Below, in pieces: positions 17,242 through 47,995 of a DNA stretch of 64,000 nucleotides. Position 1 is the stretch's first letter. Each line of letters starts with the position of its first letter. A program made the position numbers and the translations under genes. Under the pieces are notes generated by a model. The model was not told the origin of the DNA. It worked only from the letters and a program-made list of their open reading frames with translations, and searched no databases. The stretch lies in the NCBI RefSeq assembly GCF_024298765.1, contig NZ_CP101210.1. One strand, written 5' to 3'. This DNA is from Escherichia coli. Its GTDB lineage: Bacteria > Pseudomonadota > Gammaproteobacteria > Enterobacterales > Enterobacteriaceae.

Positions 17242-17266
17242 GATTACTATTTCCCTTATATATTTT

Positions 17267-19316: not shown

Positions 19317-19343
19317 ATAAACTGCATATAAACTCCATCATAT

Positions 19344-28899: not shown

Positions 28900-29352
28900 T
28901 TAAAGTGTTCTCAAAAGTCTGGCTGGATTACCGGCATACACGCCTTTTACCAGCACGGGCTTTGTAACCACACTACCAGCACCAATCACTGCTCCACTGC
29001 AAATTTCTGTGGTTAAAATGGTCGCTCCGCTACCCACTGTTACAGTGTTACCTAATACGATGCGTATCCAGCTTTCTGCAGAGGCATCGGGACCACCACA
29101 CTTAAAAAGATCATTAGCAAAAGTTACGCCATGACCGATGAAACAGCCATCACCTAAAATGACGTTCTCACAGATGAAACTGTGGGACTGAATTCGGCTC
29201 CGGTTGCCAATGATACATCCCTTCTGTATTTCCACAAAGGGACCGATAAAAACATCATCCCCCAGTTCACATTCATAGAGGTTTACTGGCATGACGACTT
29301 TCACATTTTCACCAAATTTCACATCACGAATGCGGCTGTCAATAACGTTCAT
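28900..29352 (-). CDS. Hexapeptide-repeat (left-handed beta-helix) acetyltransferase
   Basis: 150-aa ORF with repeated [LIV]G-x4 hexapeptide pattern (IGNRSRIQSHSFICENVILGDGCFIGHGVTF...); ATG start. Confidence 0.75.
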   Translation of the reverse strand: MNVIDSRIRDVKFGENVKVVMPVNLYECELGDDVFIGPFVEIQKGCIIGNRSRIQSHSFICENVILGDGCFIGHGVTFANDLFKCGGPDASAESWIRIVLGNTVTVGSGATILTTEICSGAVIGAGSVVTKPVLVKGVYAGNPARLLRTL

Positions 29353-29861
29353 ATCCGTTGTATCCTCCCTCAGGATGATTCTTATCAGAACATTTCACCT
29401 GTCAGAATATTCCCGGTAATGTGATACAAGAGCCAGTCTCACCGGGTACCATGTGTTATTGCTCGTATCCTTTTGCCCGTTACGAGTGTACAACCGGTTT
29501 TATATTTTGCAATCCAGGCCTGTTACACCAGAGCATCCTCTCACTGCCCCCTCACTGGTCAATCCGGGATTCAAAGTCATCCTCCAGCACTAAACCCCAT
29601 ACCAGTCCTGAACCTTCCCTCGCCAGCAGCCAGACTCCTACTGTTCACCACAATCCTCTTCCGTGAATGGCCGTAAGTGCGCAGCACCAAAATAAATCGG
29701 TACTTCCGATGACAGACAGTGAAAGCGTCAGAGAAATATGAACATGAGAATGGAAGCAGATACATGACTTCAGGACGACTTTTTCAGAAAACGAGCTAAG
29801 GGCGTCAGCCAACGACCTTACCGTGGTATACGCTCAGGCGCCGGATGCCGTTTTACCCGGT

Positions 29862-30593
29862 TCACCTGCCATCCAGCAAACGCCCCGGCCCACGACTGCA
29901 ACCATAATTACGTTGCCCGGAACCGTCATGCTGCTTCGTCTCATATTTCACGAGATAACTGGCTCTGTTCCGGGCTTTCTGCATCGCTTCCACATCACCA
30001 CGCTTGATCCAGAGAACAGCGGCTTCACCAGACTTTTTGTCTGAAGCCTTCCAGGTATCAGAACATCCACCCGACAAAGGCGTGTCATCGGAAGAAGGGC
30101 GAACATCAGACGATGCTGGTTTACGGGAAGGCGTCCACCTGGAAAAATGGACCAGGCCATCGCCTTGCCAGGGCTCAAGATGCAGGGCGCTGCACCATGC
30201 CTCCTGGATCATCGTCGCCAGCGAAGACGGTTCGCTGAAATCCCCGAGCGAGCACCAGGTATCTTTGTTGAGCAGTAATATCACGTGATAATGTTTCCTG
30301 CCATACATCTTGCCGAACTCCCGGCACCAGAAATAACCCAGGCTGGTTGCATGCACACGCTGATTGGCACATCTTTTTTTCCGCTGGTAAGCCTGAATTT
30401 TGGCTTTCAGGGATGCAAAAAAACGAGAAATCACCGCTGAATCCGGATCGGGATCCATGATGGTGACAGGCATATACTCAGGGAAACGTAAATCCACCCG
30501 GATTAACGAGACGGCACGGTGCTGCGCCAGGGCACTGTCGAGAAGGCTGTCAAAACGGGATAACCAGTAAGCATTGTGTATTGGTTGATTCAT
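29862..30593 (-). CDS. Inovirus Gp2-family (YfjJ/YagK-like) protein, paralogue 3
   Basis: 243-aa ORF, ATG start, conserved HYHVILLLNKD segment; conserved leader motif immediately upstream (30601-30648). Confidence 0.7.
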   Translation of the reverse strand: MNQPIHNAYWLSRFDSLLDSALAQHRAVSLIRVDLRFPEYMPVTIMDPDPDSAVISRFFASLKAKIQAYQRKKRCANQRVHATSLGYFWCREFGKMYGRKHYHVILLLNKDTWCSLGDFSEPSSLATMIQEAWCSALHLEPWQGDGLVHFSRWTPSRKPASSDVRPSSDDTPLSGGCSDTWKASDKKSGEAAVLWIKRGDVEAMQKARNRASYLVKYETKQHDGSGQRNYGCSRGPGRLLDGR

Positions 30594-30984
30594 GATGAGA
30601 GATCTCCGTTGATTTGGATTGACTTCACATCATTAATCAACGCAGTAAAACTTTACGGCATCCGACATTGAGCAATACTACAACTCTCTGATTAAGAGTG
30701 ATTGAAACGGAACAAACCATCCCGGAACGAAAAGATAATCCTGCACACAGCAGCAAAATACGCAACAACAGCATGAATGGATTTAAAAACGACATGGACG
30801 ACGAGAAAAGTCTGAAGGGAAAAGGAGCCACAGAACATTCGAACAAAACACCAGAAATGCAACCAGAACGCTTCCTGGCAATGCAAATCAACAACAACGC
30901 CAAAACCTACAACTTAATCACACAACTCAATCACGGATGCGAATGACACGCTTAAAACCTGTTTACAGATAACGCCGTAACACG

Positions 30985-31026
30985 ATCATCACCATCACCA
31001 TCACCATCACCATCACCATCACCATC
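30985..31026. repeat. Hexanucleotide simple-sequence repeat (ACCATC)x6 with flanking ATC
   Basis: Read directly: gatcatc(accatc)6ag; no start codon in the poly-His frame (a TAA lies immediately upstream). Confidence 0.85.
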
Positions 31027-31461
31027 AGAATCGATTTTCTCATCCCGAAAATGTTACGTTTCACTACGCACCATAAAAACGATTAACCATCGATAACGTA
31101 AATCTCATCTGAATCAAAACACCAAAACCGTTCATCACACTTTCGCAATGCAAGAAGAAACCTCATGACAAAAAGAATGACCTTACACGGAAAAGAAAAA
31201 CGTCAGGAATCGTTAATGCCTCAATCTGATTGTTATCAAAACATCCAGAAAGTCGTTTAACAGAATCGTCGTAAGCACATCGAAAAGAACGTCAGATTAC
31301 TTCAGGAAAGTTCGGGTTGATTTAGCGTAAAGATACTTTTCTCAAGCTAACGTCGAAACTCGAAATCTCAGGAAAGGTTAAACGTAACATCAGTAAAATC
31401 GAATAGCAGATTGATTGCTTAAACAGAAAGGTTTTACAGCAGCATTAAACTGATTTAGTTA

Positions 31462-31497
31462 ACGTAAAGATTTACTAAACGTAAAGATTTACTAAAC
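31462..31497. repeat. Tandem duplication of a 17-bp unit (cgtaaagatttactaaa)
   Basis: Read directly in the ORF-poor segment; about 100 bp downstream are three spaced copies of acgtgtat(a) (near 31572, 31606, 31636). Confidence 0.7.
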
Positions 31498-32593
31498 TGG
31501 ATGTGTATCAGATCAAACAATGTGTACAGCAATGCTTAATGAAAATACTTGTAGAATTGTTTATGAGAAAGCGTGTATAACACTTACTGAAATGCTTAGT
31601 TAAATACGTGTATGTTTGGTAAAACACTTAAGTAAAATACGTGTATAGTACCATTCCCGACATTCTCAACATCTTCAGACATCCATGCAGACTGAGTGTT
31701 GATTTCAGTTTTTCACGGCCAGCATGGATCTTTACTGTTTAAAAAACATACAGATTTACTCTGAAATTATTTACCCAGGCCTCCCTGAAAAGACCATCCG
31801 GAGCATCCCGTTCGTCAGCTTCCATGTTGTCTTTTACCCCGGAAAGTGATCGCATTTTCCAGCCAGAATGACAGCCATACTGATTATGACGTCTCTCCGG
31901 CCCCTTCACATATAACATTCATGTCAGTCATTTCTTACTGCCTCACTCACCGGAATTCTCCATGCCGGATGAAGCAATTGTTCTGAACTGAGCAGAAGCA
32001 TAACAGCACACAAGGAAACGACTGTGCTATAGATCCTGGAATCAGGATCTTAATGTCAGGAAAACAATGACGACCGGGGATAACCAACAACAACCTGAGT
32101 ACAGAAGAAAGCTTTCCCGCGCACGCCATCATCTTATGTAAGAGGATATGATGCCACCCCCACCTCAGAAGAACCGTCTCCGGGAGAACTTCACTGCATC
32201 CAAAATCCTTTTGCTGAGTTCTCATTCCCCATCATGGCAGCTACAGACATGCCCTGACAGAGCGTATGCGCATTGAGAGAAATAACCATAAATGATGAGA
32301 AGACACTCTATATAACGACAGCATGTTGAGGCATCAAAAATATTCATATAAATATTTTAAGAAAATTTTTTATTGCAAACTACAGGAAATAACATGATGT
32401 CAATATAATTTTTTAAAAAACGTGATATTAATCACATTGTAATTTTCTGTGTTTTTATGTAAATCAGAGAAAAGAGTCCATGAACGTTATTGCATTTTTT
32501 CTGATGTATGGATAAAAGGGGATTCAGGCGAAATTTACTGACAGAGGTGATAAGAGGGGGGTTAAAGAGTTCTATAGAGTTGGTTGTGCATTT

Positions 32594-33463
32594 ATGCCCA
32601 GGGAGTTCATGTCTGTGCATTCACCAGATGAATCTGATCATGTTTTTAGTCGGATGGAATATGAATATTACCGACATAACGATAAATCACCTTCTGTTAA
32701 TGCTGATAATGCAGGCAGAGACGTTGTTCCGGAGTGGGTGCAAAAAGACCCTGTAGCCGCATTCTGGGTATGGATGTTTATATATCATGTTCCTGACAGT
32801 ATTGTCCGACTCTCAGGTGAGCAATATGCAGATTACGGAATTTCCTGTCTGTATGCCAGACTGTTTGCCACAGAAGCAGCTCCAGCTAATCATCAGGCAA
32901 GGATTCGTGTGACGAGAAAATGGCTACAGGAGCTTATAAGGCTAACCGGGACAGAAAATGTATCTGACTTCTTGTATGTCGTTCATTTTTTATGGTCATA
33001 TGCTGAAAAAGTGAACCCCATGACATGGCTTGGTTCCCGGCGGATACATATCAAATGGGCATGGGCGTATCTGCAAAAACATTGCACTGACGAAGAACGT
33101 CACTGTCCTGATATTTCAGAATTTAAAGCTTCAGGGGAGTCACGTCTGTTCATAATAGCTTATGTGCGCCGTGTCTTCATGAAAATCTATTCTGTCGGTA
33201 CTGAACCTCAAAAGTTAAAAGAATTAGTTTATCAGCAGAATGATTTTCTCAGGCGCATGAAGTGCTCATACCAGAAAATGTTCCGGTATGAGAAAACCGA
33301 TTCCCGGGTACAGATAAGTGCCCTGATTTCTCCGGAAGCCAGGAATGCACTCCGGAAAATGGCAAAAAAGAATAATCTGACGCAGGCTGAAATCCTGGAT
33401 AAACTCATCTTATCAGCTGATCGTCTGTTTATGCAGAAAACAGCAGGGGATTATTCCCGTTAA
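32594..33463 (+). CDS. Uncharacterised protein with C-terminal ribbon-helix-helix-like segment
   Basis: 289-aa ORF with ATG start; C-terminal VQISALISPEARNALRKMAKKNNLTQAEILDKLIL fits a beta-strand/helix/helix (CopG/Arc-like) pattern; no other family recognised. Confidence 0.5.
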   Translation: MPREFMSVHSPDESDHVFSRMEYEYYRHNDKSPSVNADNAGRDVVPEWVQKDPVAAFWVWMFIYHVPDSIVRLSGEQYADYGISCLYARLFATEAAPANHQARIRVTRKWLQELIRLTGTENVSDFLYVVHFLWSYAEKVNPMTWLGSRRIHIKWAWAYLQKHCTDEERHCPDISEFKASGESRLFIIAYVRRVFMKIYSVGTEPQKLKELVYQQNDFLRRMKCSYQKMFRYEKTDSRVQISALISPEARNALRKMAKKNNLTQAEILDKLILSADRLFMQKTAGDYSR

Positions 33464-34449
33464 TGAGTTCCACCAGAACCGTTTTTCTTTTTGCTGCTGT
33501 TTTTGCGTTTATGCTGTTCGTACCTTTCTTTTGACGTACAAAGGAATCTTCCATAAACATTGCGGATATATGAGTTGATATACTCCAGCATTCTCTCTTT
33601 TCGTGATTTCCCTTTTTCCTTCGAATCTTCACTTTGAACATTAATGTCCATCAGTTCTTTTATAAACTTATCCAGATTTTCCATGTCATAAAGCAGCATG
33701 AAAAACATCACATTTCCCAGTGATTCCAGTAACTGAGATTCAACCCAGTCCCCATATTTTCTGAAACTTAGCCCTGTTAAAAACTGTTCAAACATTACCC
33801 CTGATACAAAAAGAGATTTTAATCCCAGTCGCTTATATTCCTGGTAAAAAAGTTCAAACGTCGGGGATTCTGAACGGCAAATAAACGAAGACAGCGCCCA
33901 TGGATCAAAATCTGTAACACGCCTCCCCTCCCACACTTCCTGCCGTGTCAGCGGCGGTTCAGCAAACCAGGCGTCCAGCTCAGCCGAATCGCTGTCCCTG
34001 CTCAAAACCTTATACAAACTGCCCGTGAACGGTTGAGGCGGATTTTTGGTTGCTTCATCTTCTGATTGTCTGGATTGTCTGGATTGTCTGGATTGTCTGG
34101 ATTGTCTGAATCCGTCCACTTTTCTCCGGATATTACGCGGGATCAGCATAAAAGGCGGGACATTAAGTGATAAACGTTTACCCGTCATGCGATACCATTG
34201 CCCCACCTCAACCTTAATCCGTGTATCTGACTTTAGCTCAAGTGCCATTATGTTAAGCAGGTACAGATAACGCACCGTATAACAGTCAAAATGTTTCTCC
34301 GGATCAAACGGCTCTGACCGTTCTCTGCACACGAGTCCGCTGCGCTTCAGTATTCGCTGGGTATCTTTCCAGGCCTTACACTGAAGAATGGTGGTAACTC
34401 TGGCCTTATTAGCAATCTCACGCAGCGCATCACTTTGTTGTGCCGTCAT
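33460..34449 (-). CDS. Uncharacterised protein with internal (RQS)5 repeat
   Basis: 329-aa ORF, ATG start preceded by GGGAGGTGAG Shine-Dalgarno; contains an in-frame 9-bp tandem repeat (34062-34106); stop overlaps the stop of the convergent 32594 gene (TTAA). Confidence 0.55.
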   Translation of the reverse strand: MTAQQSDALREIANKARVTTILQCKAWKDTQRILKRSGLVCRERSEPFDPEKHFDCYTVRYLYLLNIMALELKSDTRIKVEVGQWYRMTGKRLSLNVPPFMLIPRNIRRKVDGFRQSRQSRQSRQSRQSEDEATKNPPQPFTGSLYKVLSRDSDSAELDAWFAEPPLTRQEVWEGRRVTDFDPWALSSFICRSESPTFELFYQEYKRLGLKSLFVSGVMFEQFLTGLSFRKYGDWVESQLLESLGNVMFFMLLYDMENLDKFIKELMDINVQSEDSKEKGKSRKERMLEYINSYIRNVYGRFLCTSKERYEQHKRKNSSKKKNGSGGTH

Positions 34450-34554
34450 CTCACCTCCCGCACTCTGTCACTCCAGATTTTTTCACGTCCATATTACCTG
34501 AATGATAAGCCGGATTAGTGTGATCCGGTTCAGCGAAATCAACAGGATAACGGT

Positions 34555-35439
34555 ATGTCATTCAGCCATTCTTCCCTCTCCGCACAAGTGAAATCACATC
34601 TGACGTTTCTTCCTGAAGAAATTCGCCAGAAAATCCTTGAACATCTCCACAGTGTTATTCATTACGAGCCCGTGATTGGCATTATGGGTAAATCCGGAAC
34701 AGGCAAAAGCAGTCTGTGTAATGCCATTTTTCAGTCCCGTATCTGCGCCACACATCCTCTGAACGGCTGCACCCGCCAGGCTCATCGTCTTACCCTGCAG
34801 TTCGGTGAACGCAGAATGACGCTGGTCGATCTGCCCGGCATTGGTGAAACACCGCAGCATGATCAGGAATACCGGACACTTTATCGTCAGCTGCTACCGG
34901 AACTGGATCTGATTATCTGGATCCTGCGGGCTGATGAACGTGCGTATGCTGCTGATATTGCCATGCATCAGTTTTTACTGAATGAAGGCGCAGATCCCTC
35001 GCGTTTTCTGTTTGTTCTCAGCCATGCCGATCGCGTGTTTCCTGCTGAAGAATGGAATGCCACAGAAAAATGCCCGTCCCGTCAGCAGTCGCTCTCACTG
35101 GCGACGGTGACAGCCCGGGTGGCAACCCTGTTCCCTTCATCATTTCCGGTACTCTCCGTTGCTGCACCTGTCGGCTGGAACCTTCCGGCGTTTGTGTCGC
35201 TGATGATCCACGCACTGCCACCACAGGCAACCAGCGCGGTGTATTCACATATCCGGGGAGAAAACCGCTCTGAACAGGCCCGGAAACACGCACAACAGAC
35301 TTTTGGTGAAACCATCGGGAAAAGTTTTGACGACGCCGTTGCCCGTTTCAGTTTTCCGGCCTGGATGTTACAGCTTCTGCGCAAAACCCGGGACCGCATT
35401 ATCCACCTGCTGGTCACACTGTGGGATCACCTGTTCTGA
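34555..35439 (+). CDS. YeeP/YkfA/YfjP-family GTPase
   Basis: 294-aa ORF with P-loop GKSGTGKSSLCNAIF and DLPGIGE (G3) motifs; position typical of CP4-44/CP4-57-like elements. Confidence 0.8.
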   Translation: MSFSHSSLSAQVKSHLTFLPEEIRQKILEHLHSVIHYEPVIGIMGKSGTGKSSLCNAIFQSRICATHPLNGCTRQAHRLTLQFGERRMTLVDLPGIGETPQHDQEYRTLYRQLLPELDLIIWILRADERAYAADIAMHQFLLNEGADPSRFLFVLSHADRVFPAEEWNATEKCPSRQQSLSLATVTARVATLFPSSFPVLSVAAPVGWNLPAFVSLMIHALPPQATSAVYSHIRGENRSEQARKHAQQTFGETIGKSFDDAVARFSFPAWMLQLLRKTRDRIIHLLVTLWDHLF

Positions 35440-35557
35440 ACGCCCCGGAGTCCCCCGTGGCAACCGTATACCTTTACACGACAACGGATTACGGTAACCA
35501 CTGCCGTATACCGTCTGTCATTATCAATAACACGCTCTTTAATTTCAGAGGTCAGTC

Positions 35558-36235
35558 ATGAATACCAGAATTCTTTTTCCCCTGCTGTTCACTGTGGCAT
35601 CATTCTCCGCCTCCGCCGGCAACTGGGCTGTCAAAAACGGCTGGTGTCAGACCATGACGGAAGATGGTCAGGCGCTGGTAATGCTGAAAAATGGCACGAT
35701 TGGTATTACCGGCCTGATGCAGGGATGCCCGAATGGTGTACAGACGCTCCTGGGCAGCCGTATCAGTATTAACGGTAACCTGATCCCCACATCACAAATG
35801 TGTAATCAGCAGACGGGATTCAGGGCTGTTGAGGTGGAAATCGGACAGGCGCCGGAAATGGTCAAAAAAGCCGTTCACTCCATAGCAGAGCGTGATGTGT
35901 CCGTTTTACAGGCATTTGGTGTACGAATGGAATTCACCCGCGGTGATATGCTGAAGGTCTGTCCGAAATTTGTCACATCACTTGCCGGTTTTTCCCCGAA
36001 ACAGACGACCACTATTAATAAAGATTCCGTCCTGCAGGCTGCCCGGCAGGCATACGCCCGGGAATATGACGAGGAAACAACAGAAACCGCTGATTTTGGC
36101 TCTTACGAAGTAAAAGGCAATAAGGTTGAGTTTGAAGTATTCAATCCTGAAGACCGTGCGTACGACAAAGTGACCGTCACGGTTGGTGCTGACGGTAATG
36201 CCACCGGCGCCAGCGTTGAATTTATCGGAAAATAG
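35558..36235 (+). CDS. Secreted/periplasmic hypothetical protein
   Basis: 225-aa ORF with cleavable signal peptide [20 protein letters not shown]; ATG start. Confidence 0.6.
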
Positions 36236-36240
36236 CCGGT

Positions 36241-36474
36241 ATGTCGGACTGCCACCCTGTTTTATTGCCCGAAGGCCCTTTCTCACGCGAACAGGCGGTT
36301 GCCGTCACAACAGCTTACCGCAATGTGCTTATTGAGGATGACCAGGGAACGCATTTCCGGCTGGTTATCCGCAATGCCGAAGGGCAGCTACGCTGGCGGT
36401 GCTGGAATTTTGAACCTGATGCCGGAAAACAGCTAAATTCGTATCTCGCCAGTGAGGGAATTCTCAGGCAATAA
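36241..36474 (+). CDS. DUF905-like small protein (YkfF/YpjJ-like)
   Basis: 77-aa ORF; [55 protein letters not shown] resembles the YkfF family as recalled. Confidence 0.5.
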
Positions 36475-36563
36475 ACGTCTTCATTTCATCCATCAGGCCG
36501 CGTCTTCTCCGGGAGACGCGGCCTTTTCGTTTATACCGCTAATTCATTCATAAGGAGCAAAGT

Positions 36564-37382
36564 ATGCAATTAGCCAGTCGTTTTGGTCATGTAAATCAGA
36601 TCCGTCGGGAGCGCCCACTGACACGCGAAGAACTGATGTACCACGTCCCGAGTATTTTTGGAGAAGACCGGCACACCTCCCGCAGTGAACGGTATGCGTA
36701 CATTCCCACCATCACCGTCCTGGAAAATCTGCAGCGGGAAGGCTTTCAGCCGTTCTTCGCCTGCCAGACCCGTGTGCGCGACCAGAGCCGCCGGGAATAT
36801 ACCAAACATATGCTGCGTCTGCGGCGGGCCGGACAGATAACTGGTCAGCATGTGCCTGAAATTATTCTGCTCAACTCCCATGACGGTTCATCCAGCTACC
36901 AGATGTTACCCGGATATTTTCGTGCCATTTGTACCAATGGACTGGTCTGCGGTCAGTCTCTGGGAGAATTGCGTGTTCCACACCGGGGAAATGTGGTGGA
37001 GAAAGTTATTGAAGGGGCTTACGAGGTGGTGGGCGTGTTTGACCGGATAGAGGAGAAGCGTGATGCCATGCAGTCGCTGGTCCTGCCGCCACCGGCACGC
37101 CAGGCGCTGGCACAGGCGGCACTGACTTACCGTTATGGTGACGAACATCACCCCGTCACCACCGCCGACATTCTGACGCCACGACGCCGGGAGGATTACG
37201 GTAAGGACCTGTGGAGTACTTATCAGACCATCCAGGAGAATATGCTGAAAGGCGGAATTTCCGGTCGCAGTGCCAGAGGAAAACGTATCCACACCCGTGC
37301 CATTCACAGCATCGACACCGACATTAAGCTCAATCGCGCATTGTGGGTGATGGCAGAAACGCTACTGGAGAGCCTGCGCTGA
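36564..37382 (+). CDS. DUF932-like protein (YfjQ/YafZ-like)
   Basis: 272-aa ORF in the conserved position upstream of the anti-restriction/radC genes; family assignment from memory. Confidence 0.55.
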   Translation: MQLASRFGHVNQIRRERPLTREELMYHVPSIFGEDRHTSRSERYAYIPTITVLENLQREGFQPFFACQTRVRDQSRREYTKHMLRLRRAGQITGQHVPEIILLNSHDGSSSYQMLPGYFRAICTNGLVCGQSLGELRVPHRGNVVEKVIEGAYEVVGVFDRIEEKRDAMQSLVLPPPARQALAQAALTYRYGDEHHPVTTADILTPRRREDYGKDLWSTYQTIQENMLKGGISGRSARGKRIHTRAIHSIDTDIKLNRALWVMAETLLESLR

Positions 37383-37647
37383 TGCAATCTGTCCCTGAAG
37401 GCGTGATTCAGGCACCAGAATCACCCGACGCCCCGGAGAACTCAGTCTGTGCAGACTGAGTACAGGCAATGGCATCTTCTGGCCATCCGTCTGTGACCGG
37501 AACGGTTACGCGTACGGCTGTCCGGAATTTCAGCCGAATATCATTCATCCCTGATATTGCCGGGTCTCACGGTCAGTGATGAACGTGATGTTGTCAGCCC
37601 CCGGCCTTTATTTCCTCTCATTTATACACATTGTAAGGATTTCACTC

Positions 37648-38127
37648 ATGAAAATCGTTTCTCAGAACACAACTGCTCTTTCTTCAGCCACAGCACCAGG
37701 GAATAACCAGCCCCAACTGGTTGCTACTCCCGTCCCTGATGAACAACGTATCAGCTTCTGGCCGCAGCATTTTGGCCTCATTCCACAGTGGGTGACCCTG
37801 GAGCCCCGTGTCTTCGGCTGGATGGACCGTCTGTGCGAAGACTACTGCGGGGGCATCTGGAATCTGTACACCCTGAACAACGGCGGGGCATTTATGGCCC
37901 CCGAACCGGATGATGATGATGACGAAACATGGGTACTGTTCAATGCCATGAACGGTAACCGCGCTGAAATGAGCCCGGAAGCCGCCGGCATTGCCGCCTG
38001 TCTGATGGCGTACAGCCATCACGCCTGTCGTACAGAGAATTATGCCATGACGGTTCATTATTACCGGCTGCGGGATTATGCCCTGCAGCATCCGGAATGC
38101 AGCGCCATTATGCGCATCATCGACTGA
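37648..38127 (+). CDS. KlcA/ArdB-type anti-restriction protein (YfjX/YafX-like)
   Basis: ATG at 37648 preceded by TAAGGAT Shine-Dalgarno (track ORF starts upstream at 37576); family-like FWPQHFGLIPQW segment. Confidence 0.7.
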   Translation: MKIVSQNTTALSSATAPGNNQPQLVATPVPDEQRISFWPQHFGLIPQWVTLEPRVFGWMDRLCEDYCGGIWNLYTLNNGGAFMAPEPDDDDDETWVLFNAMNGNRAEMSPEAAGIAACLMAYSHHACRTENYAMTVHYYRLRDYALQHPECSAIMRIID

Positions 38128-38619
38128 ATGGAGGCAGGGACAATGCAGCAGCTTTCCTTTCTGCCCGGAGAGATGACACCCGGCGAGCGCAGCCTCATTC
38201 AGCGGGCCCTGAAAGCCCTGGACCGCCATCTTCATGAACCCGGCGTGGCCTTCACCTCCACGCATGCGGCACGGGAATGGCTGATTCTGAACATGGCGGG
38301 ACTGGAGCGTGAAGAATTCCGGGTGCTGTATCTGAATAACCAGAATCAGCTGATTACCGGTGAAACCCTCTTCACTGGCACCATCAACCGCACAGAAGTC
38401 CATCCCCGGGAGGTGATTAAACGCGCCCTGTACCACAATGCCGCTGCCGTGGTGCTGGCGCACAATCACCCGTCCGGTGAAGTCATCCCCAGCAAGGCAG
38501 ACCGCCTTATCACGGAACGTCTGGTACAGGCACTGGGCCTAGTGGATATCCGGGTGCCGGACCATCTGATAGTCGGTGGCAGCCAGGTTTTCTCCTTTGC
38601 CGAACATGGTCTGCTTTAA
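38128..38619 (+). CDS. RadC-like JAB-domain protein (YeeS/YfjY/YkfG family)
   Basis: 163-aa ORF with JAMM-type HNHPSG motif; alternative start at 38143 after a GGAGG Shine-Dalgarno. Confidence 0.85.
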   Translation: MEAGTMQQLSFLPGEMTPGERSLIQRALKALDRHLHEPGVAFTSTHAAREWLILNMAGLEREEFRVLYLNNQNQLITGETLFTGTINRTEVHPREVIKRALYHNAAAVVLAHNHPSGEVIPSKADRLITERLVQALGLVDIRVPDHLIVGGSQVFSFAEHGLL

Positions 38620-38681
38620 CCCGTCACAACCACATCACACCTGTTTTCACTTTTATCTTCTGTCTTCAGAGGTATCCCATT

Positions 38682-38903
38682 ATGAAAATTATCACCCGTG
38701 GTGAAGCCATGAGTATTCACCAACAACATCCGACATCCCGTCTTTTTCCGTTCTGTACCGGTAAATACCGCTGGCACGGCAGTGCTGAGGCGTATACCGG
38801 TCGTGAAGTGCAGGATATTCCCGGTGTGCTGGCTGTATTTGCAGAACGCCGTAAGGACAGTTTTGGCCCGTATGTCCGGCTGATGAGCGTCACCCTGAAC
38901 TGA
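38682..38903 (+). CDS. YeeT-like protein (DUF987)
   Basis: 73-aa ORF in the conserved position between the radC-like gene and the TA module. Confidence 0.6.
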   Translation: MKIITRGEAMSIHQQHPTSRLFPFCTGKYRWHGSAEAYTGREVQDIPGVLAVFAERRKDSFGPYVRLMSVTLN

Positions 38904-38921
38904 ATCAGAAAGGGGATTCTG

Positions 38922-39550
38922 ATGAGCAGCATTATCACCATCACAGTGTATACGCTGGATGAACTTTCCTGCCCGGTACGGGGAAAAGCCCGCGACGGGT
39001 ACCGTCAGCATCATGCTGACAGCAACTGGTATGAAAACGTGTATGAGGACTTCAGGGCGGTCTGTGACATTTTCGGAATTGACCTCCGCCAGCGCGTTTT
39101 CCGGCTCAGCCAGGTTTATGGAAGAGCCGTGCATCTGGTTCAGCGGATGCTGCAGCCAGGGGGACGGAGCCTGTTTTGAAGGACGCTGGCACTGGCAGCC
39201 GGCGACAGCCCGGATAATCCGGAAGTATGCCCCACAGGAGCATGAACTCCATCGTATCGCGGATGCCCTGCAGGCGGTGCAGAAACGTAACTTCTGGCAA
39301 CTGCAGGCTGAAATCCACCACCGGGGACGTTACTGCCATCCGTTATCACTGTTACCCGGAACAGTCCGACTGGTCAGGCTATGACAGCCGATGCGGAAGC
39401 CGCTGTCAGCGAAGCCCTGCGCGACCTGGCCTTCTGGCTGTACCGTCAACTGGAAAACGAGTACGACCAGATGACCTCAGACGCCGCTGTGGATGAGGCC
39501 ATTCTCATCAATGCATACATCTTCACCGAAACCGGTCAGCGCACCGGCTG
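38922..39550 (+). pseudogene. Frameshifted gene remnant between yeeT-like gene and cbeA
   Basis: Coding potential passes through three overlapping frames (38922-39179, 38959-39384, 39383-39550) with no single long ORF. Confidence 0.3.
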
Positions 39551-39600
39551 ACCTGTCATCGTTAAACCATTCTTAACCACTTTTCAGAGAGGATTTTATC

Positions 39601-39969
39601 GTGTCAGACACACTCTCCGGGATAACTCATCCCGACGACAATCACGACCGCCCCTGGTGGGGGCTTCCCTGCACAGTGAGGCCCTGTTTTGGCGCCCGTC
39701 TGGTGCAGGAGGGTAACCGCCTGCATTACCTTGCCGACCGCGCCGACATCAGAGGCCGGTTCAGCGATGCGGATGCATACCATCTGGACCAGGCCTTTCC
39801 GCTGCTGATGAAACAACTGGAACTCATGCTCACCAGCGGTGAACTGAATCCCCGCCATCAGCATACCGTCACGCTGTATGCAAAAGGGCTGACCTGCGAA
39901 GCCGACACCCTCGGCAGTTGTGGTTACGTTTATCTGGCTGTTTATCCGACGCCCGAAACGAAAAAGTAA
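39601..39969 (+). CDS. cbeA: CbeA/YeeU-family antitoxin (type IV TA)
   Basis: 122-aa ORF MSDTLSGITHPDDNHDRPWWGLPCTV...; very close to K-12 YeeU as recalled; GTG start. Paralogues (yafW, yfjZ) exist, so the symbol is by best resemblance. Confidence 0.8.
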   Translation: MSDTLSGITHPDDNHDRPWWGLPCTVRPCFGARLVQEGNRLHYLADRADIRGRFSDADAYHLDQAFPLLMKQLELMLTSGELNPRHQHTVTLYAKGLTCEADTLGSCGYVYLAVYPTPETKK

Positions 39970-40059
39970 ACCACCGGAATAACCTTCTGCTCCGGCCAGG
40001 TGTTTTCACCACGCCACTCTCCCCATAATTTAATCTCTCATATCAGGAAAATCTTCAGT

Positions 40060-40470
40060 ATGAAATTATTACCCGACACACATGTACGGGAGGCATCGTG
40101 CTGCCCGTCTCCCGTCACCATCTGGCAGACACTGCTCATCCGTCTGCTGGACCAGCACTATGGCCTCACACTGAATGACACACCGTTCGCTGATGAACGT
40201 GTGATTGAGCAGCATATTGAGGCCGGCATTTCACTGTGCGATGCGGTGAACTTTCTCGTTGAAAAATACGCACTGGTACGTACCGACCAGCCGGGATTCA
40301 GCGCAGGAGCCCCGTCGCAGTTAATCAACAGCATCGATATTCTCCGGGCCCGCCGGGCAACAGGCCTGATGACACGTAATAACTACAGAATGGTAAATAA
40401 CATTACCCTGGGTAGCATCCGGGGGCGAAACGATGAAACTTTCCCTGACGCTGGAAGCCGACAGCATTAA
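40060..40470 (+). CDS. cbtA: CbtA/YeeV-family toxin (type IV TA), C-terminus divergent
   Basis: ATG at 40060 gives [11 protein letters not shown]...[62 protein letters not shown] matching YeeV-family; last ~20 residues differ from the K-12 sequence I recall. Confidence 0.8.
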
Positions 40471-40855
40471 CGTGCAGGCACTGAACATGGGGCGCATTGT
40501 CGTTGACATTGATGGTGTAAATCTCGCTGAACTGATTAACAAGGTCGCTGAATACGGTTATTCACTCCGCGTGGTGGATGAACGTGACGCTACCGAAACA
40601 CCGGCGACTTCTGCCAGCTCTCATCAGTTGCCGGAAGACAATACAGTGATACAGAGCGTGATGCCATTAACCACTGAAACAGCGCTGGATATCCTCATTG
40701 CGTGGCTGCAGGACAATATCGACTGCGGGTCCGGAATTATTTTCGACAACGATGAGGATAAAACGGATTCGGCAGCACTGCTGCCCTGTATTGAACAGGC
40801 CAGGGAGGATATCCGTACCCTGCACCAACTGCAACTTCTGCACCAGAACCGGTGA
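40433..40855 (+). CDS. Hypothetical protein downstream of cbtA (YeeW position)
   Basis: 140-aa acidic ORF, ATG start, overlaps cbtA 3' end by 38 bp. Confidence 0.4.
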
Positions 40856-40939
40856 ATCTCACTCACCAGACTTCATTCTCCTGACGCCAGCCTGAACAGA
40901 GCTGGCGTTTTCGTTTATAAACAGAAAGGAAACCCCATA

Positions 40940-41725
40940 ATGTCATATATCACAATCCCCCACCCGAACGCGGTCAACGGACATACAGCCGTTATCTGTT
41001 CCACAAGTATCAGACACATCCTGGCTGTACGAAAGAGTACACTGCTGCAAATCGACACGCTTATCCGGCAACTGACAGAAATCTCAGCACTGACGGAAAG
41101 TATTGGCGGTAAAGCCGCCCCGGACTGGGCGATGAAACAGAATTTTCGCTGTGGTTGCTGGCTGATGGAGAAACCAGAAACAGCAATGAAAGCCATTACC
41201 CGGAATCTTGACCGCGAAATCTGGCGTAACCTGATGCAGCGTTCCGGGATGCTTTCCTTAATGGATGCACAGGCACGTGATACATGGTACAGGTCACTGG
41301 AATATGATAATTTTCCGGAAATCAGTGAAGCGAACATTCTGAGCACATTTGAACAACTGCACCAGAATAAGGATGAAGTGTTTGAGCGGGGGGTGATCAA
41401 CCTCTTCAAAGGGCTGAGCTGGGATTACAAAACCAACTCACCCTGTAAATTTGGCAGTAAAATTATCGTCAACAATCTGGTGAGGTGGGACCAGTGGGGA
41501 TTTCATCTTATCAGTGGAATGCAGGCAGATCGCCTGGCTGACCTGGAAAGAATGTTGCATCTGCTCAGCGGTAAACCGATCCCCGACAACCGGGGAATAT
41601 CACCATTAATCTGGATGACCACATACAGTCCGTTCAGGGTAAAGGACGCTATGAAGATGAGATGTTCATCATTAAATACTTTAAGAAGGGAGCTGCACAC
41701 ATCACTTTCAAAAGGCTGGAGCTGA
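40940..41725 (+). CDS. Hypothetical island-end protein (DUF4942-like, tentative)
   Basis: 261-aa ORF with ATG start; last gene before the att remnant. Confidence 0.45.
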   Translation: MSYITIPHPNAVNGHTAVICSTSIRHILAVRKSTLLQIDTLIRQLTEISALTESIGGKAAPDWAMKQNFRCGCWLMEKPETAMKAITRNLDREIWRNLMQRSGMLSLMDAQARDTWYRSLEYDNFPEISEANILSTFEQLHQNKDEVFERGVINLFKGLSWDYKTNSPCKFGSKIIVNNLVRWDQWGFHLISGMQADRLADLERMLHLLSGKPIPDNRGISPLIWMTTYSPFRVKDAMKMRCSSLNTLRRELHTSLSKGWS

Positions 41726-41891
41726 TTGACAGAATTAACGATATAATAGCCAGGCACTTTCCTTCTGTGCTCTCAGCCTGACCCCGAGTTTGATTCCCTT
41801 TCGATATCAAAAGGGACTGCGGGTACAAAAGAGGGTACATCTTTCACCAAACCAAACAAAATAAACCAATATCAACATGATAGAAGCATTC

Positions 41892-41913
41892 TTCGATTCC
41901 GAGTCCGGCACCA
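41892..41913 (+). repeat. 3'-terminal fragment of tRNA-Phe (att-site remnant); not an intact tRNA gene
   Basis: TTCGATTCCGAGTCCGGCACCA matches the T-arm/acceptor 3' end of E. coli tRNA-Phe with one G fewer than I recall; upstream sequence is not tRNA-like. Confidence 0.6.
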
Positions 41914-41924
41914 AATTCATATAA

Positions 41925-41952
41925 ACGGACCTCCACGGAGGTCCGTTTTTCG
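41925..41952 (+). terminator. Rho-independent terminator (native pheU downstream terminator)
   Basis: 10-bp perfect stem ACGGACCTCC/GGAGGTCCGT with 2-nt loop, then TTTTT. Confidence 0.55.
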
Positions 41953-42529
41953 TTTCAGGACGCCACGATTTAAGCGTCCTGCCGCCAAATCAATTCTACC
42001 GAACTCAACCAGATTCTCCCCACATCACCAGCAATTTACGGGCATATTCCAATTCGGGAAAATTTGTTTCTGAGCTATAGCGCTGACTGACGTGAAATGT
42101 CGTGCGGCCCCGTGATGCTGTTGAACGTCAAATGACGTCATCAGGAGCGTAACGCACCCATAAAGCACAACATCGGGCAGAACGCCAACTGATGAGATTT
42201 TCTGAATAAGAACAAAGAGAAATGTATCAGTCCGTTTGCTCATGCAAAGACTAACAATCCATTAAAATAGTAAGCGCTCCGGACAATTTTTCATGGATTA
42301 TTTTCTGAACATTTTTCTTTGGCAAAGATGATGAATTTTGATGGTAAGGAAAATTACTTCTGGTTCTCAGTAAAATCCTTTCGTAATACTATGTAATCAA
42401 GAAGTTTATGGCGGGTAAAAATAACGTCCTACATTCACCAATAATATGTAAATAAACCCATCTATAGATGGAAAAAATAGGTTATGGCAATTATCATTGC
42501 ATCATTCCCTTTTCGAATGAGTTTCTATT

Positions 42530-44068
42530 ATGCAACAACCTGTAGTTCGCGTTGGCGAATGGCTTGTTACTCCGTCCATAAACCAAATTAGCCGCAATGG
42601 GCGTCAACTTACCCTTGAGCCGAGATTAATCGATCTTCTGGTTTTCTTTGCTCAACACAGTGGCGAAGTACTTAGCAGGGATGAACTTATCGATAATGTC
42701 TGGAAGAGAAGTATTGTCACCAATCACGTTGTGACGCAGAGTATCTCAGAACTACGTAAGTCATTAAAAGATAATGATGAAGATAGTCCTGTCTATATCG
42801 CTACTGTACCAAAGCGCGGCTATAAATTAATGGTGCCGGTTATCTGGTACAGCGAAGAAGAGGGAGAGGAAATAATGCTATCTTCGCCTCCCCCTATACC
42901 AGAGGCGGTTCCTGCCACAGATTCTCCCTCCCACAGTCTTAACATTCAAAACACCACAACGCCACCTGAACAATCCCCAGTTAAAAGCAAACGATTCACT
43001 ACCTTTTGGGTATGGTTTTTTTTCCTGTTGTCGTTAGGTATCTGTGTCGCACTGGTAGCGTTTTCAAGTCTTGAAACACGTCTTCCTATGAGTAAATCGC
43101 GCATTTTGCTCAATCCACGCGATATTGACATTAATATGGTTAATAAGAGTTGTAACAGCTGGAGTTCTCCGTATCAGCTCTCTTACGCGATAGGCGTGGG
43201 TGATTTGGTGGCGACATCACTTAACACCTTCTCCACCTTTATGGTGCATGACAAAATCAACTACAACATTGATGAACCGAGCAGTTCCGGTAAAACATTA
43301 TCTATTGCGTTTGTTAATCAGCGCCAATACCGTGCTCAACAATGCTTTATGTCGGTAAAATTGGTAGACAATGCAGATGGTTCAACCATGCTGGATAAAC
43401 GTTATGTCATCACTAACGGTAATCAGCTGGCGATTCAAAATGATTTGCTCCAGAGTTTATCAAAAGCGTTAAACCAACCGTGGCCACAACGAATGCAGGA
43501 GATGCTCCAGCAAATTTTGCCGCATCGTGGTGCGTTATTAACTAATTTTTATCAGGCACATGATTATTTACTGCATGGTGATGATAAATCATTGGATCGT
43601 GCCAGTGAATTATTAGGTGAGATTGTTCAATCATCCCCAGAATTTACCTACGCGAGAGCAGAAAAAGCATTAGTTGATATCGTGCGCCATTCTCAACATC
43701 CTTTAGACGAAAAACAATTAGCAGCACTGAACACAGAAATAGATAACATTGTTACACTACCGGAATTGAACAACTTGTCCATTATATATCAAATAAAAGC
43801 GGTCAGTGCCCTGGTAAAAGGTAAAACAGATGAGTCTTATCAGGCGATAAATACTGGCATTGATCTTGAAATGTCCTGGCTAAATTATGTGTTGCTTGGC
43901 AAGGTTTATGAAATGAAGGGGATGAACCGGGAAGCAGCTGATGCATATCTCACCGCCTTTAATTTACGCCCAGGGGCAAACACCCTTTACTGGATTGAAA
44001 ATGGTATATTCCAGACTTCTGTTCCTTATGTTGTACCTTATCTCGACAAATTTCTCGCTTCAGAATAA
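42530..44068 (+). CDS. cadC: CadC, membrane-integrated transcriptional activator of cadBA
   Basis: 512-aa ORF MQQPVVRVGEWLVTPSINQISRNGRQLTLEPRLIDLL... with N-terminal winged-helix DNA-binding region, single TM and periplasmic sensor. Confidence 0.95.
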   Translation: MQQPVVRVGEWLVTPSINQISRNGRQLTLEPRLIDLLVFFAQHSGEVLSRDELIDNVWKRSIVTNHVVTQSISELRKSLKDNDEDSPVYIATVPKRGYKLMVPVIWYSEEEGEEIMLSSPPPIPEAVPATDSPSHSLNIQNTTTPPEQSPVKSKRFTTFWVWFFFLLSLGICVALVAFSSLETRLPMSKSRILLNPRDIDINMVNKSCNSWSSPYQLSYAIGVGDLVATSLNTFSTFMVHDKINYNIDEPSSSGKTLSIAFVNQRQYRAQQCFMSVKLVDNADGSTMLDKRYVITNGNQLAIQNDLLQSLSKALNQPWPQRMQEMLQQILPHRGALLTNFYQAHDYLLHGDDKSLDRASELLGEIVQSSPEFTYARAEKALVDIVRHSQHPLDEKQLAALNTEIDNIVTLPELNNLSIIYQIKAVSALVKGKTDESYQAINTGIDLEMSWLNYVLLGKVYEMKGMNREAADAYLTAFNLRPGANTLYWIENGIFQTSVPYVVPYLDKFLASE

Positions 44069-44433
44069 GTAACTCCCGGATTGATTCATGCTCGGGAATA
44101 TTTGTTGTTGAGTTTTTGTATGTTCCCGTTGGTATAATATGTTGCGGCAATTTATTTGCCGCATGATTTTTATTACATAAATTTAACCAGAAGATGTCAC
44201 ATAACACATTGTAAATATTGAATGTTTATCTTTTCATGATATCAACTTGCGATCCTGATGTGTTAATAAAAAACCTCAAGTTCTCACTTACAGAAACTTT
44301 TGTGTTATTTCACCTAATCTTTAGGATTAATCCTTTTTTCGTGAGTAATCTTAGCGCCAGTTTGGTCTGGTCAGGAAATAGTTATACATCATGACCCGGA
44401 CTCCAAATTCAAAAATGAAATTAGGAGAAGAGC
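44069..44433 (+). promoter_or_regulatory. cadBA promoter/CadC-binding region
   Basis: AT-rich 365-bp intergenic region between cadC and cadB; by established knowledge carries Pcad with CadC and H-NS sites. Individual sites not mapped here. Confidence 0.4.
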
Positions 44434-45768
44434 ATGAGTTCTGCCAAGAAGATCGGGCTATTTGCCTGTACCGGTGTTGTTGCCGGTAATATGATGGGGA
44501 GCGGTATTGCATTATTACCTGCGAACCTAGCAAGTATCGGTGGTATTGCTATCTGGGGTTGGATTATCTCTATTATTGGTGCAATGTCGCTGGCATATGT
44601 ATATGCCCGACTGGCAACAAAAAACCCGCAACAAGGTGGCCCAATTGCGTATGCCGGAGAAATTTCTCCTGCATTTGGTTTTCAGACAGGTGTTCTTTAT
44701 TACCATGCTAACTGGATTGGTAACCTGGCAATTGGTATTACCGCTGTATCTTATCTTTCCACCTTCTTCCCAGTATTAAATGATCCTGTTCCGGCGGGTA
44801 TCGCCTGTATTGCTATCGTCTGGGTATTTACCTTTGTAAATATGCTCGGCGGTACCTGGGTAAGCCGTTTAACCACTATTGGTCTGGTGCTGGTTCTTAT
44901 TCCTGTGGTGATGACTGCTATTGTTGGCTGGCATTGGTTTGATGCAGCAACTTATGCAGCTAACTGGAATACTGCGGATACCACTGATGGTCATGCGATC
45001 ATTAAAAGTATTCTGCTCTGCCTGTGGGCCTTCGTGGGTGTTGAATCCGCAGCAGTAAGTACTGGTATGGTTAAAAACCCGAAACGTACCGTTCCGCTGG
45101 CAACCATGCTGGGTACTGGTTTAGCAGGTATTGTTTATATCGCTGCGACTCAGGTGCTTTCCGGTATGTATCCGTCTTCTGTAATGGCAGCTTCCGGTGC
45201 TCCGTTTGCAATCAGTGCTTCAACTATCCTCGGTAACTGGGCTGCGCCGCTGGTTTCTGCATTCACCGCCTTTGCGTGCCTGACTTCTCTGGGCTCCTGG
45301 ATGATGTTGGTAGGCCAGGCAGGTGTACGTGCCGCTAACGACGGTAACTTCCCGAAAGTTTATGGTGAAGTCGACAGCAACGGTATTCCGAAAAAAGGTC
45401 TGCTGCTGGCTGCAGTGAAAATGACTGCCCTGATGATCCTCATCACTCTGATGAACTCTGCCGGTGGTAAAGCATCTGACCTGTTCGGTGAACTGACCGG
45501 TATCGCAGTACTGCTGACTATGCTGCCGTACTTCTACTCTTGCGTTGACCTGATTCGTTTTGAAGGCGTTAACATCCGCAACTTTGTCAGCCTGATCTGC
45601 TCTGTACTGGGTTGCGTGTTCTGCTTCATCGCGCTGATGGGCGCAAGCTCCTTCGAGCTGGCAGGTACCTTCATCGTCAGCCTGATTATCCTGATGTTCT
45701 ACGCTCGCAAAATGCACGAGCGCCAGAGCCACTCAATGGATAACCACACAGCGTCTAACGCACATTAA
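44434..45768 (+). CDS. cadB: Lysine/cadaverine antiporter
   Basis: 444-aa polytopic APC-family permease directly upstream of cadA. Confidence 0.95.
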   Translation: MSSAKKIGLFACTGVVAGNMMGSGIALLPANLASIGGIAIWGWIISIIGAMSLAYVYARLATKNPQQGGPIAYAGEISPAFGFQTGVLYYHANWIGNLAIGITAVSYLSTFFPVLNDPVPAGIACIAIVWVFTFVNMLGGTWVSRLTTIGLVLVLIPVVMTAIVGWHWFDAATYAANWNTADTTDGHAIIKSILLCLWAFVGVESAAVSTGMVKNPKRTVPLATMLGTGLAGIVYIAATQVLSGMYPSSVMAASGAPFAISASTILGNWAAPLVSAFTAFACLTSLGSWMMLVGQAGVRAANDGNFPKVYGEVDSNGIPKKGLLLAAVKMTALMILITLMNSAGGKASDLFGELTGIAVLLTMLPYFYSCVDLIRFEGVNIRNFVSLICSVLGCVFCFIALMGASSFELAGTFIVSLIILMFYARKMHERQSHSMDNHTASNAH

Positions 45769-45847
45769 TTAAAAGTATTTTCCGAGGCTCCTCCTTTCAT
45801 TTTGTCCCATGTGTTGGGAGGGGCCTTTTTTACCTGGAGATATGACT

Positions 45848-47995
45848 ATGAACGTTATTGCAATATTGAATCACATGGGGGTTTATTTTAAAGAAGAACC
45901 CATCCGTGAACTTCATCGCGCGCTTGAACGTCTGAACTTCCAGATTGTTTACCCGAACGACCGTGACGACTTATTAAAACTGATCGAAAACAATGCGCGT
46001 CTGTGCGGCGTTATTTTTGACTGGGATAAATATAATCTCGAGCTGTGCGAAGAAATTAGCAAAATGAACGAGAACCTGCCGTTGTACGCGTTCGCTAATA
46101 CGTATTCCACTCTCGATGTAAGCCTGAACGACCTGCGTTTACAGATTAGCTTCTTTGAATATGCGCTGGGTGCTGCTGATGATATTGCTAACAAGATCAA
46201 GCAGACCACTGACGAATATATCAACACTATTCTGCCTCCGCTGACCAAAGCACTGTTTAAATATGTTCGTGAAGGTAAATATACTTTCTGTACTCCTGGT
46301 CACATGGGCGGTACTGCATTCCAGAAAAGCCCGGTAGGTAGCCTGTTCTATGATTTCTTTGGTCCGAACACCATGAAATCTGATATTTCCATTTCAGTAT
46401 CTGAACTGGGTTCTCTGCTGGATCACAGTGGTCCACACAAAGAAGCAGAACAGTATATCGCTCGCGTCTTTAACGCAGACCGCAGCTACATGGTGACCAA
46501 CGGTACTTCCACTGCGAACAAAATTGTTGGTATGTACTCTGCTCCGGCAGGCAGCACCATTCTGATTGACCGTAACTGCCACAAATCGCTGACCCACCTG
46601 ATGATGATGAGCGATGTTACGCCAATCTATTTCCGCCCGACCCGTAACGCTTACGGTATTCTTGGTGGTATCCCACAGAGTGAATTCCAGCACGCTACCA
46701 TTGCTAAGCGCGTGAAAGAAACACCAAACGCAACCTGGCCGGTACATGCTGTAATTACCAACTCTACCTATGATGGTCTGCTGTACAACACCGACTTCAT
46801 CAAGAAAACACTGGATGTGAAATCCATCCACTTTGACTCCGCGTGGGTGCCTTACACCAACTTCTCACCGATTTACGAAGGTAAATGCGGTATGAGCGGT
46901 GGCCGTGTAGAAGGGAAAGTGATTTACGAAACCCAGTCTACTCACAAACTGCTGGCGGCGTTCTCTCAGGCTTCCATGATCCACGTTAAAGGTGACGTAA
47001 ACGAAGAAACCTTTAACGAAGCCTACATGATGCACACCACCACTTCTCCGCACTACGGTATCGTGGCGTCCACTGAAACCGCTGCGGCGATGATGAAAGG
47101 CAATGCAGGTAAGCGTCTGATCAACGGTTCCATTGAACGTGCGATCAAATTCCGTAAAGAGATCAAACGTCTGAGAACGGAATCTGATGGCTGGTTCTTT
47201 GATGTATGGCAGCCGGATCATATCGATACGACTGAATGCTGGCCGCTGCGTTCTGACAGCACCTGGCACGGCTTCAAAAACATCGATAACGAGCACATGT
47301 ATCTTGACCCGATCAAAGTCACCCTGCTGACTCCGGGGATGGAAAAAGACGGCACCATGAGCGACTTCGGTATTCCGGCCAGCATCGTGGCGAAATACCT
47401 CGACGAACATGGCATCGTTGTTGAGAAAACCGGTCCGTATAACCTGCTGTTCCTGTTCAGCATCGGTATCGATAAGACCAAAGCACTGAGCCTGCTGCGT
47501 GCTCTGACTGACTTCAAACGTGCGTTCGATCTGAACCTGCGTGTGAAAAACATGCTGCCGTCTCTGTATCGTGAAGATCCTGAATTCTATGAAAACATGC
47601 GTATTCAGGAACTGGCTCAGAATATCCACAAACTGATTGTTCACCACAATCTGCCGGATCTGATGTATCGCGCATTTGAAGTTCTGCCGACGATGGTAAT
47701 GACTCCGTATGCTGCGTTCCAGAAAGAGCTGCACGGTATGACCGAAGAAGTTTACCTCGACGAAATGGTAGGTCGTATTAACGCCAATATGATCCTTCCG
47801 TATCCGCCGGGAGTTCCTCTGGTAATGCCGGGTGAAATGATCACCGAAGAAAGCCGTCCGGTTCTGGAGTTCCTGCAGATGCTGTGTGAAATCGGCGCTC
47901 ACTATCCGGGCTTTGAAACCGATATTCACGGTGCATACCGTCAGGCTGATGGCCGCTATACCGTTAAGGTATTGAAAGAAGAAAGCAAAAAATAA
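45848..47995 (+). CDS. cadA: Inducible lysine decarboxylase
   Basis: ATG at 45848 gives MNVIAILNHMGVYFKEEPIRELHRALERLNFQIVYPN..., 715 aa; track ORF begins 13 codons upstream. Confidence 0.95.
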   Translation: MNVIAILNHMGVYFKEEPIRELHRALERLNFQIVYPNDRDDLLKLIENNARLCGVIFDWDKYNLELCEEISKMNENLPLYAFANTYSTLDVSLNDLRLQISFFEYALGAADDIANKIKQTTDEYINTILPPLTKALFKYVREGKYTFCTPGHMGGTAFQKSPVGSLFYDFFGPNTMKSDISISVSELGSLLDHSGPHKEAEQYIARVFNADRSYMVTNGTSTANKIVGMYSAPAGSTILIDRNCHKSLTHLMMMSDVTPIYFRPTRNAYGILGGIPQSEFQHATIAKRVKETPNATWPVHAVITNSTYDGLLYNTDFIKKTLDVKSIHFDSAWVPYTNFSPIYEGKCGMSGGRVEGKVIYETQSTHKLLAAFSQASMIHVKGDVNEETFNEAYMMHTTTSPHYGIVASTETAAAMMKGNAGKRLINGSIERAIKFRKEIKRLRTESDGWFFDVWQPDHIDTTECWPLRSDSTWHGFKNIDNEHMYLDPIKVTLLTPGMEKDGTMSDFGIPASIVAKYLDEHGIVVEKTGPYNLLFLFSIGIDKTKALSLLRALTDFKRAFDLNLRVKNMLPSLYREDPEFYENMRIQELAQNIHKLIVHHNLPDLMYRAFEVLPTMVMTPYAAFQKELHGMTEEVYLDEMVGRINANMILPYPPGVPLVMPGEMITEESRPVLEFLQMLCEIGAHYPGFETDIHGAYRQADGRYTVKVLKEESKK

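Follow-up and report, generated by a model that had tools for sequence, protein, structure and literature searches.

The window, a 64,000-nt stretch of one strand of Escherichia coli DNA (contig NZ_CP101210.1), contains the right-hand part of a genomic island, a short remnant of the 3' end of a tRNA-Phe gene, a predicted terminator, pieces of a decayed integrase gene and cadC, in that order (Table 1). An earlier sequence-only reading had taken the remnant for the point at which an island inserted at pheU meets the core chromosome. Here the island, the junction and the flanking DNA are considered in turn, with other E. coli genomes for comparison.

Table 1. Features on either side of the tRNA-Phe remnant, in window positions
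Feature	Position	Strand	Basis or remark
Right-hand ~42 kb of Phe-tRNA genomic island	1-41891	.	Colinear with ACN002; left end runs off the window
DUF4942 gene (frameshifted), the island's last gene	~40940-41780	+	Pfam PF13708, E=4.8e-46
Non-coding terminal arm, candidate attP-derived arm of attR	41781-41891	+	No homology to the empty site
tRNA-Phe 3' remnant, very probably attR	41892-41913	+	tRNA-Phe alignment; equals the attR published for 16 GI-pheV islands (PMC11537424 Table 1)
Leader of fossil P4-like island	41914-42027	+	With the remnant, forms a ~137-nt repeat of the ACN002 attL side
Predicted Rho-independent terminator, island-type leader terminator	41923-41953	+	11-bp stem, 4-nt loop, T-run
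Fossil integrase, codons 1-11	42077-42109	+	tblastn with the ACN002 integrase
Fossil integrase, codons ~359-420 plus stop; yjdQ of K-12	42111-42270	+	tblastn, E=7e-10
Fossil tail, homologous to DNA just downstream of the live integrase	42271-42387	+	blastn
cadC, first intact core gene right of the junction	42530-44068	+	512-aa ORF; annotated cadC in all matched genomes

Island content

Up to position 41891 the window is colinear with the island of strain ACN002 (NZ_CP007491) at 99.99-100% identity, and the names of the island genes were transferred from the ACN002 record. The cargo comprises type I restriction-modification genes, a 3' fragment of cdiA with cdiI, and a microcin H47 cluster. At the right end lies the module usual for CP4-like islands, with genes for a GTPase, DUF932, antirestriction, RadC/JAB, DUF987, YeeU/CbtA, DUF957 and DUF4942 proteins. 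The microcin H47 cluster (13267-19553, minus strand) consists of mchI, mchB, mchF, a gene for an HlyD-family exporter and mchS3, and the region of lowest GC content in the window (31-38%, about 10-14 kb) holds this cluster.

Of cdiA (~6005-9759, minus strand), the window has a 3' fragment only, about 3.4 kb long, after which comes an immunity gene of the YezG family. In CH4804 and some 15 further genomes, the cdiA site contains roughly 9.4 kb more, with full cdiA and cdiB, and the match to window positions 1-25000 spans 26.3 kb in ACN002 versus 34.4 kb in CH4804. The fragment and its immunity gene look like an orphan toxin-tip/immunity module left behind by a deletion that ACN002 has as well. 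Two smaller differences from ACN002 lie further along. ACN002 has an IS2 insertion at window positions 23963-23968 that is absent from the window, and the alignment blocks overlap there by 6 nt, which is probably the target-site duplication of IS2. At 25025-25275, 19 substitutions relative to ACN002 fall within 250 nt of an island that is otherwise almost identical; they lie in a hypothetical gene whose protein accession is also different in FDAARGOS_1287, and the cluster of substitutions has the look of a divergent allele or of a short tract of recombination.

In the 100%-identical ACN002 copy of the right end, the gene at 38921-39550, the CbtA-family toxin gene (40059-40435) and the DUF4942 gene are frameshifted, and DUF5983 is truncated; the annotation of TUM9803 likewise gives DUF4942 as a frameshifted pseudogene. 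The frameshifted module (38921-41780) suggests that this end of the island is decaying. The terminal arm beyond it precedes the remnant at eight occupied Phe-tRNA sites, with a conservation of 88-100%.

The same island in other strains

In ACN002, the island continues for about 9 kb to the left of window position 1 and is then bounded by a P4-type integrase gene, an intact tRNA-Phe gene and dicD. The integrase is a protein of 420 aa with the domains Arm-DNA-bind_3 (PF13356), Phage_int_M (PF22022) and Phage_integrase (PF00589). XB2 carries a copy of this island at pheV, beside yqgA, and the integrase protein is again WP_001218753.1. The right end of the XB2 copy is identical up to a 23-nt remnant and is followed by unrelated DNA, so the island proper ends at the remnant. 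FDAARGOS_1287 has the same cargo near nanC-nanM, in an orientation opposite to cad, and the cargo therefore lies at pheU, at pheV or near nanC-nanM, depending on the strain. At an identity of at least 99%, this right end occurs in 3 of 5426 complete E. coli genomes, those of ACN002, XB2 and CH4804.

CH4804 has a 49-nt tRNA-Phe remnant and an SPI-7-type ICE (ParA, DnaB-PI, ParB) ahead of the integrase, and not an intact tRNA. This 49-nt fragment (locus L018, 6126-6203) is annotated as a 78-nt tRNA-Ser, although ARAGORN detects no tRNA at that place; the annotation seems to be an error for an attR of the ICE in a three-tier tandem array. Together with the copy of the same island at pheV in XB2, this arrangement raises the question of what stands at the far end of the island in the present strain. 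The remnant might be an attR whose partner end abuts the tRNA remnant of another element, as in CH4804, or lies in pheV flanks after an inversion between pheU and pheV. We regard this as rather unlikely, given that ACN002, which has the cdiA truncation seen in the window, has its integrase adjoining intact pheU and dicD. An other end that is not a plain, intact pheU would in any event leave the identity of the remnant unchanged.

The junction at pheU

At 41892-41913 the window reads TTCGATTCCGAGTCCGGCACCA. In alignment with pheU of K-12 and of D10, this is TTCGATTCCGAGTCCGG-CACCA, the 3'-terminal 23 nt of tRNA-Phe minus one G of a GGG run. The 22-mer has one copy in the window versus none expected (100 shuffles). 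Even with as many as 3 mismatches allowed, a search of the window with the complete 25-nt end of tRNA-Phe gave 0 matches because the remnant differs by an indel. ARAGORN found 0 tRNA genes over the 64-kb window and Rfam gave 0 matches at gathering score, and the 22 nt of tRNA do not form a complete cloverleaf. The earlier statement that about 22 nt of tRNA-Phe, and no intact tRNA, are present is therefore borne out, as is that of a terminator just beyond. In the hairpin (41923-41948), a stem of 11 pairs, 6 of them G-C, closes a 4-nt loop; TTCGTTT comes next, and the centroid energy is -18.4 kcal/mol. With its G+C-rich hairpin and T-run, this structure is predicted to be an intrinsic terminator.

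The distance from the CCA of the remnant to the ATG of cadC (42530) is 616 nt, where 615 bp had been given, and the spacing in K-12 is identical (3' end of pheU at 4362551, cadC start at 4361934). Alignment to the pheU-cadC region of K-12, proposed earlier as a means of locating the crossover, places the beginning of homology exactly at the first T of the remnant, from where it continues into cadC.

Strains D10 and 2014C-3338 have the corresponding empty site, in the order dicD, intact pheU, yjdQ' and cadC, and the flank in the window is 100% identical to both. The match to D10 starts at exactly 41892 and runs over 3,639 nt with 0 mismatches and 1 gap, the missing G; to the left of 41892, direct comparison found no homology to the D10 empty site. 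The DNA from the window start to the remnant, which matches the ACN002 island, is absent from D10 and 2014C-3338, in keeping with the earlier assignment of this whole stretch to the island. Relative to ACN002, the window has 4 differences in 26701-41891 and then 87 in 41906-47117, the first of which is the G of the remnant. This step in SNP density at the remnant indicates that island and flank differ in history and that the switch falls inside the att core.

Several features of a tRNA-integrated island are present here. Related strains have a precisely matching empty site, the distal boundary carries a direct repeat of the target tRNA's 3' end (the 22-nt remnant), and the island has a history distinct from that of the flanking core, seen in the step in differences from ACN002 and in the same island at pheV in XB2. 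The proximal boundary, an intact tRNA with a P4-type integrase, is outside the window and is present in ACN002 and, at pheV, in XB2. The D10 breakpoint at 41892, the colinearity with ACN002 and the SNP-density step all agree with the earlier view that this is the direct-repeat side of such an element. Junctions of the type DUF4942-remnant-cadC occur in 977 of 5426 complete E. coli genomes; the combination of this island with the flank in the window occurs in 0 complete E. coli genomes of the collection, in which the best match over 41000-43000 has 98.8% identity.

Could the remnant instead be a native pheU that has lost its 5' part, in a strain without pheU at this place? The lack of an intact tRNA in the window is what such a deletion would leave. 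The same 22/23-nt end point recurs, however, with diverse islands at pheU as well as at pheV, the known att core is where the breakpoint falls, and ACN002 has an intact pheU as well as a remnant around the same island. On the recurrence of an identical end point and the presence of both copies in ACN002, we reject a 5'-deleted pheU as very improbable.

A further alternative concerns how the island arrived. A large fragment brought in by conjugation or transduction could have replaced or joined an existing pheU locus by homologous recombination, with the right-hand crossover in the tRNA end or in a 137-nt stretch of homology, described below, between the attL-type leader and the flank. That repeat, at 97% identity, would permit RecA-dependent recombination. 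The cargo is also mosaic, lying at pheU, pheV and near nanC-nanM in different strains. Occupied pheU sites commonly have a 22-nt remnant, and so does the window; the form in ACN002 and XB2 is the 23-nt one. Against such an entry, the window equals ACN002 up to 41905 and, apart from the G, equals D10 from 41892, so the crossover lies within about 14-22 nt, inside the att core. This is the region that an integrase cuts, and it is very short for RecA. We therefore consider entry by homologous recombination a poor candidate, with a small chance of being correct.

The exact breakpoint, the empty site and the colinearity with an island bounded by pheU and an integrase were each observed directly. 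From the sequence comparisons, we conclude with high confidence that the remnant is an attR, in other words the direct repeat at the distal end of an island, some 50 kb or larger, in the pheU locus.

The missing G

The G-deleted, 22-nt form of the remnant was found at 7 of 8 sampled occupied pheU sites. It is the commonest GI-pheV attR and the attR of 16 GI-pheV islands (PMC11537424 Table 1). ACN002 (at pheU) and XB2 (at pheV), which carry the same island at 100% identity, have a 23-nt remnant with GGG, versus the 22-nt remnant of the window (G run at 41906). The 22/23-nt polymorphism may stem from separate insertions that differed in their crossover point or in repair, such as bulge repair, or it may stem from slippage. 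The missing G could also derive from the attP of the island, an origin that the 23-nt form on the ACN002 and XB2 copies fits poorly.

A single mismatch between the repeats can reduce excision by orders of magnitude (PMC11537424, discussion). Judged from sequence, the G-deleted attR and the frameshifted right-end genes suggest that the island is largely immobilised.

A fossil island in the flank

The DNA to the right of the remnant resembles the opposite, integrase-bearing end of the island. Window positions 41892-42027 align with the attL of ACN002 over 137 nt at an identity of 97.1%, the differences being 3 mismatches and 1 gap (blastn). The repeat shared with the integrase end is therefore longer than 22 nt, at about 137 nt and 97%. 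An identical AAATTCATATAAACGGACCTCCACGGAGGTCCGTTTTT terminator, with its leader, follows the intact tRNA at the integrase end of the island both in ACN002, at pheU, and in XB2, at pheV, and the terminator at an empty pheV, that of K-12, differs from this island-type terminator. The terminator, being present at the attL of both pheU and pheV and absent from the empty pheV, therefore travels with P4-type Phe-tRNA islands and is of island-type origin.

Beyond the leader lie the pieces of an integrase gene. The first eleven codons read IALTDVKCRAA, compared with MALTDAKIRAA in the live protein, the ATG having mutated to ATA. The second piece, of codons ~359-420, is frameshifted and has an internal stop. 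The two pieces, which are all that is found of an integrase in the yjdQ region, lie in different frames, and the gene is internally deleted for codons ~12-358. With blastn, 42103-42387 matches ACN002 from about codon 355 of the integrase gene to 117 nt past its stop, at 70.7% over 317 nt (E=4e-42). In K-12 the second piece is annotated as the pseudogene yjdQ (b4654), and other E. coli genomes have it as a pseudogene named [quoted passage not shown]. A search for yjdQ in the literature collection used found no papers.

At a coverage of at least 80%, 5219 of 5426 complete E. coli genomes contain the fossil block. When one genome per species was scanned for an exact match to 31 nt spanning the deletion junction of the integrase, one short MAG contig matched, although exact matching is too strict for dating the fossil. 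About 140 nt (42388-42529) separate the end of detectable fossil homology from the start codon of cadC, with a promoter-like site at 42469-42497.

A simpler origin of the terminator and yjdQ, arrival with the island as its own right end, was rejected on two grounds: the copy at pheV ends at the remnant and has unrelated DNA after it, and empty pheU sites already have both.

By its sequence, the flank is the integrase-proximal stub of an older, decayed P4-like island that is fixed in nearly all E. coli. The pheU locus is therefore a tandem array of live island, attR, fossil island and cadC. The earlier description of an island/core junction with a native terminator accordingly needs to be divided: the junction is at pheU, as it said, but the terminator is of island type and the flank is a fossil element. 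With a terminator of that origin, the junction is one between an island and a species-fixed fossil, not between an island and the primordial core.

Discussion

The remnant is the canonical attR of an island of the intP4 class at a Phe-tRNA gene, a kind of site that is already known and whose sequence has been published for pheV islands. The attR is identical to that of GI-pheV/GI-pheU islands with intP4, such as PAI V of strain 536 and GI-pheV of APEC O1, H10407 and 55989 (PMC11537424). The likeness extends to the P4-type integrase beside tRNA-Phe, here seen in relatives, and to a conserved right-end module (antirestriction, RadC, YeeU/CbtA, DUF4942) with mosaic, variable cargo. Two points set the present island apart from GI-pheV: it is at pheU, and its attR abuts the leader of a fossil island, not unrelated chromosomal DNA. 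With respect to the wider class, the combination of microcin H47, truncated cdiA/cdiI and type I restriction-modification genes with this right end at an identity of at least 99% is confined to 3 of 5426 genomes. What our analysis adds is the exact breakpoint relative to a lineage-matched empty site, the assignment of terminator and leader to the fossil, and an effective repeat of about 137 nt.

Tandem accretion at tRNA genes, in which the tRNA that one element has rebuilt becomes the target of the next, has a parallel in SPI-7-type/ICEEc2-like ICEs with islands, which likewise have the order island, remnant, island; here the second member is a fossil. CH4804 has a three-tier version, with ICE, 49-nt remnant, this island, remnant and fossil. 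Unlike other tandem arrays, the one in the window has a downstream member of about 470 nt that is fixed species-wide. Part of that member already has a name, in that window positions 42111-42270 correspond, in locus and in sequence class, to yjdQ (b4654) of K-12. The fossil goes well beyond the annotated yjdQ, however, extending from 41914 to about 42387 and taking in the terminator, the leader, codons 1-11 and some 117 nt after the stop.

The arrangement most probably arose by a scheme familiar from the P4 family. The circular island would carry an attP made up of the terminal arm, a 22/23-nt core, the terminator-bearing leader and the integrase gene. A tyrosine integrase of P4/CP4 type would recombine this attP with the 3' end of pheU, acting as attB. 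The proximal junction would thereby rebuild an intact tRNA, and the distal junction would keep the duplicated 3' end alone, G-deleted and not a gene. That the integrase made the joint, and that events took this order, is what we infer from established P4-family behavior, the integrase itself being seen in relatives.

The length of the repeat invites a further suggestion, which we put forward tentatively as it is more probably wrong than right. The homology of ~137 nt at 97% that incoming Phe-tRNA islands have with pheU beyond the tRNA, and do not have with pheV, could make pheU a site at which islands enter, exit or are swapped by RecA without an integrase, and the 22- and 23-nt remnants could then record different crossover or repair events in independent insertions.

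For annotation, the remnant provides an anchor that puts the island's right-hand limit at 41891/41892, and all DNA to its left is therefore horizontally acquired cargo, with toxin-antitoxin genes alongside the microcin, cdiA/cdiI and restriction-modification genes. Boundaries drawn by comparison with K-12 separate what varies from what is fixed, and do not separate foreign from ancestral DNA, because the flank itself is the stub of an older island. Recombination at pheU has available a direct repeat that exceeds the tRNA fragment severalfold in length, and part of the region upstream of cadC in E. coli may be island-derived. Were pheU followed by this fossil leader in every E. coli, its terminator would be island-derived DNA throughout the species, and so perhaps would some of the DNA upstream of cadC.
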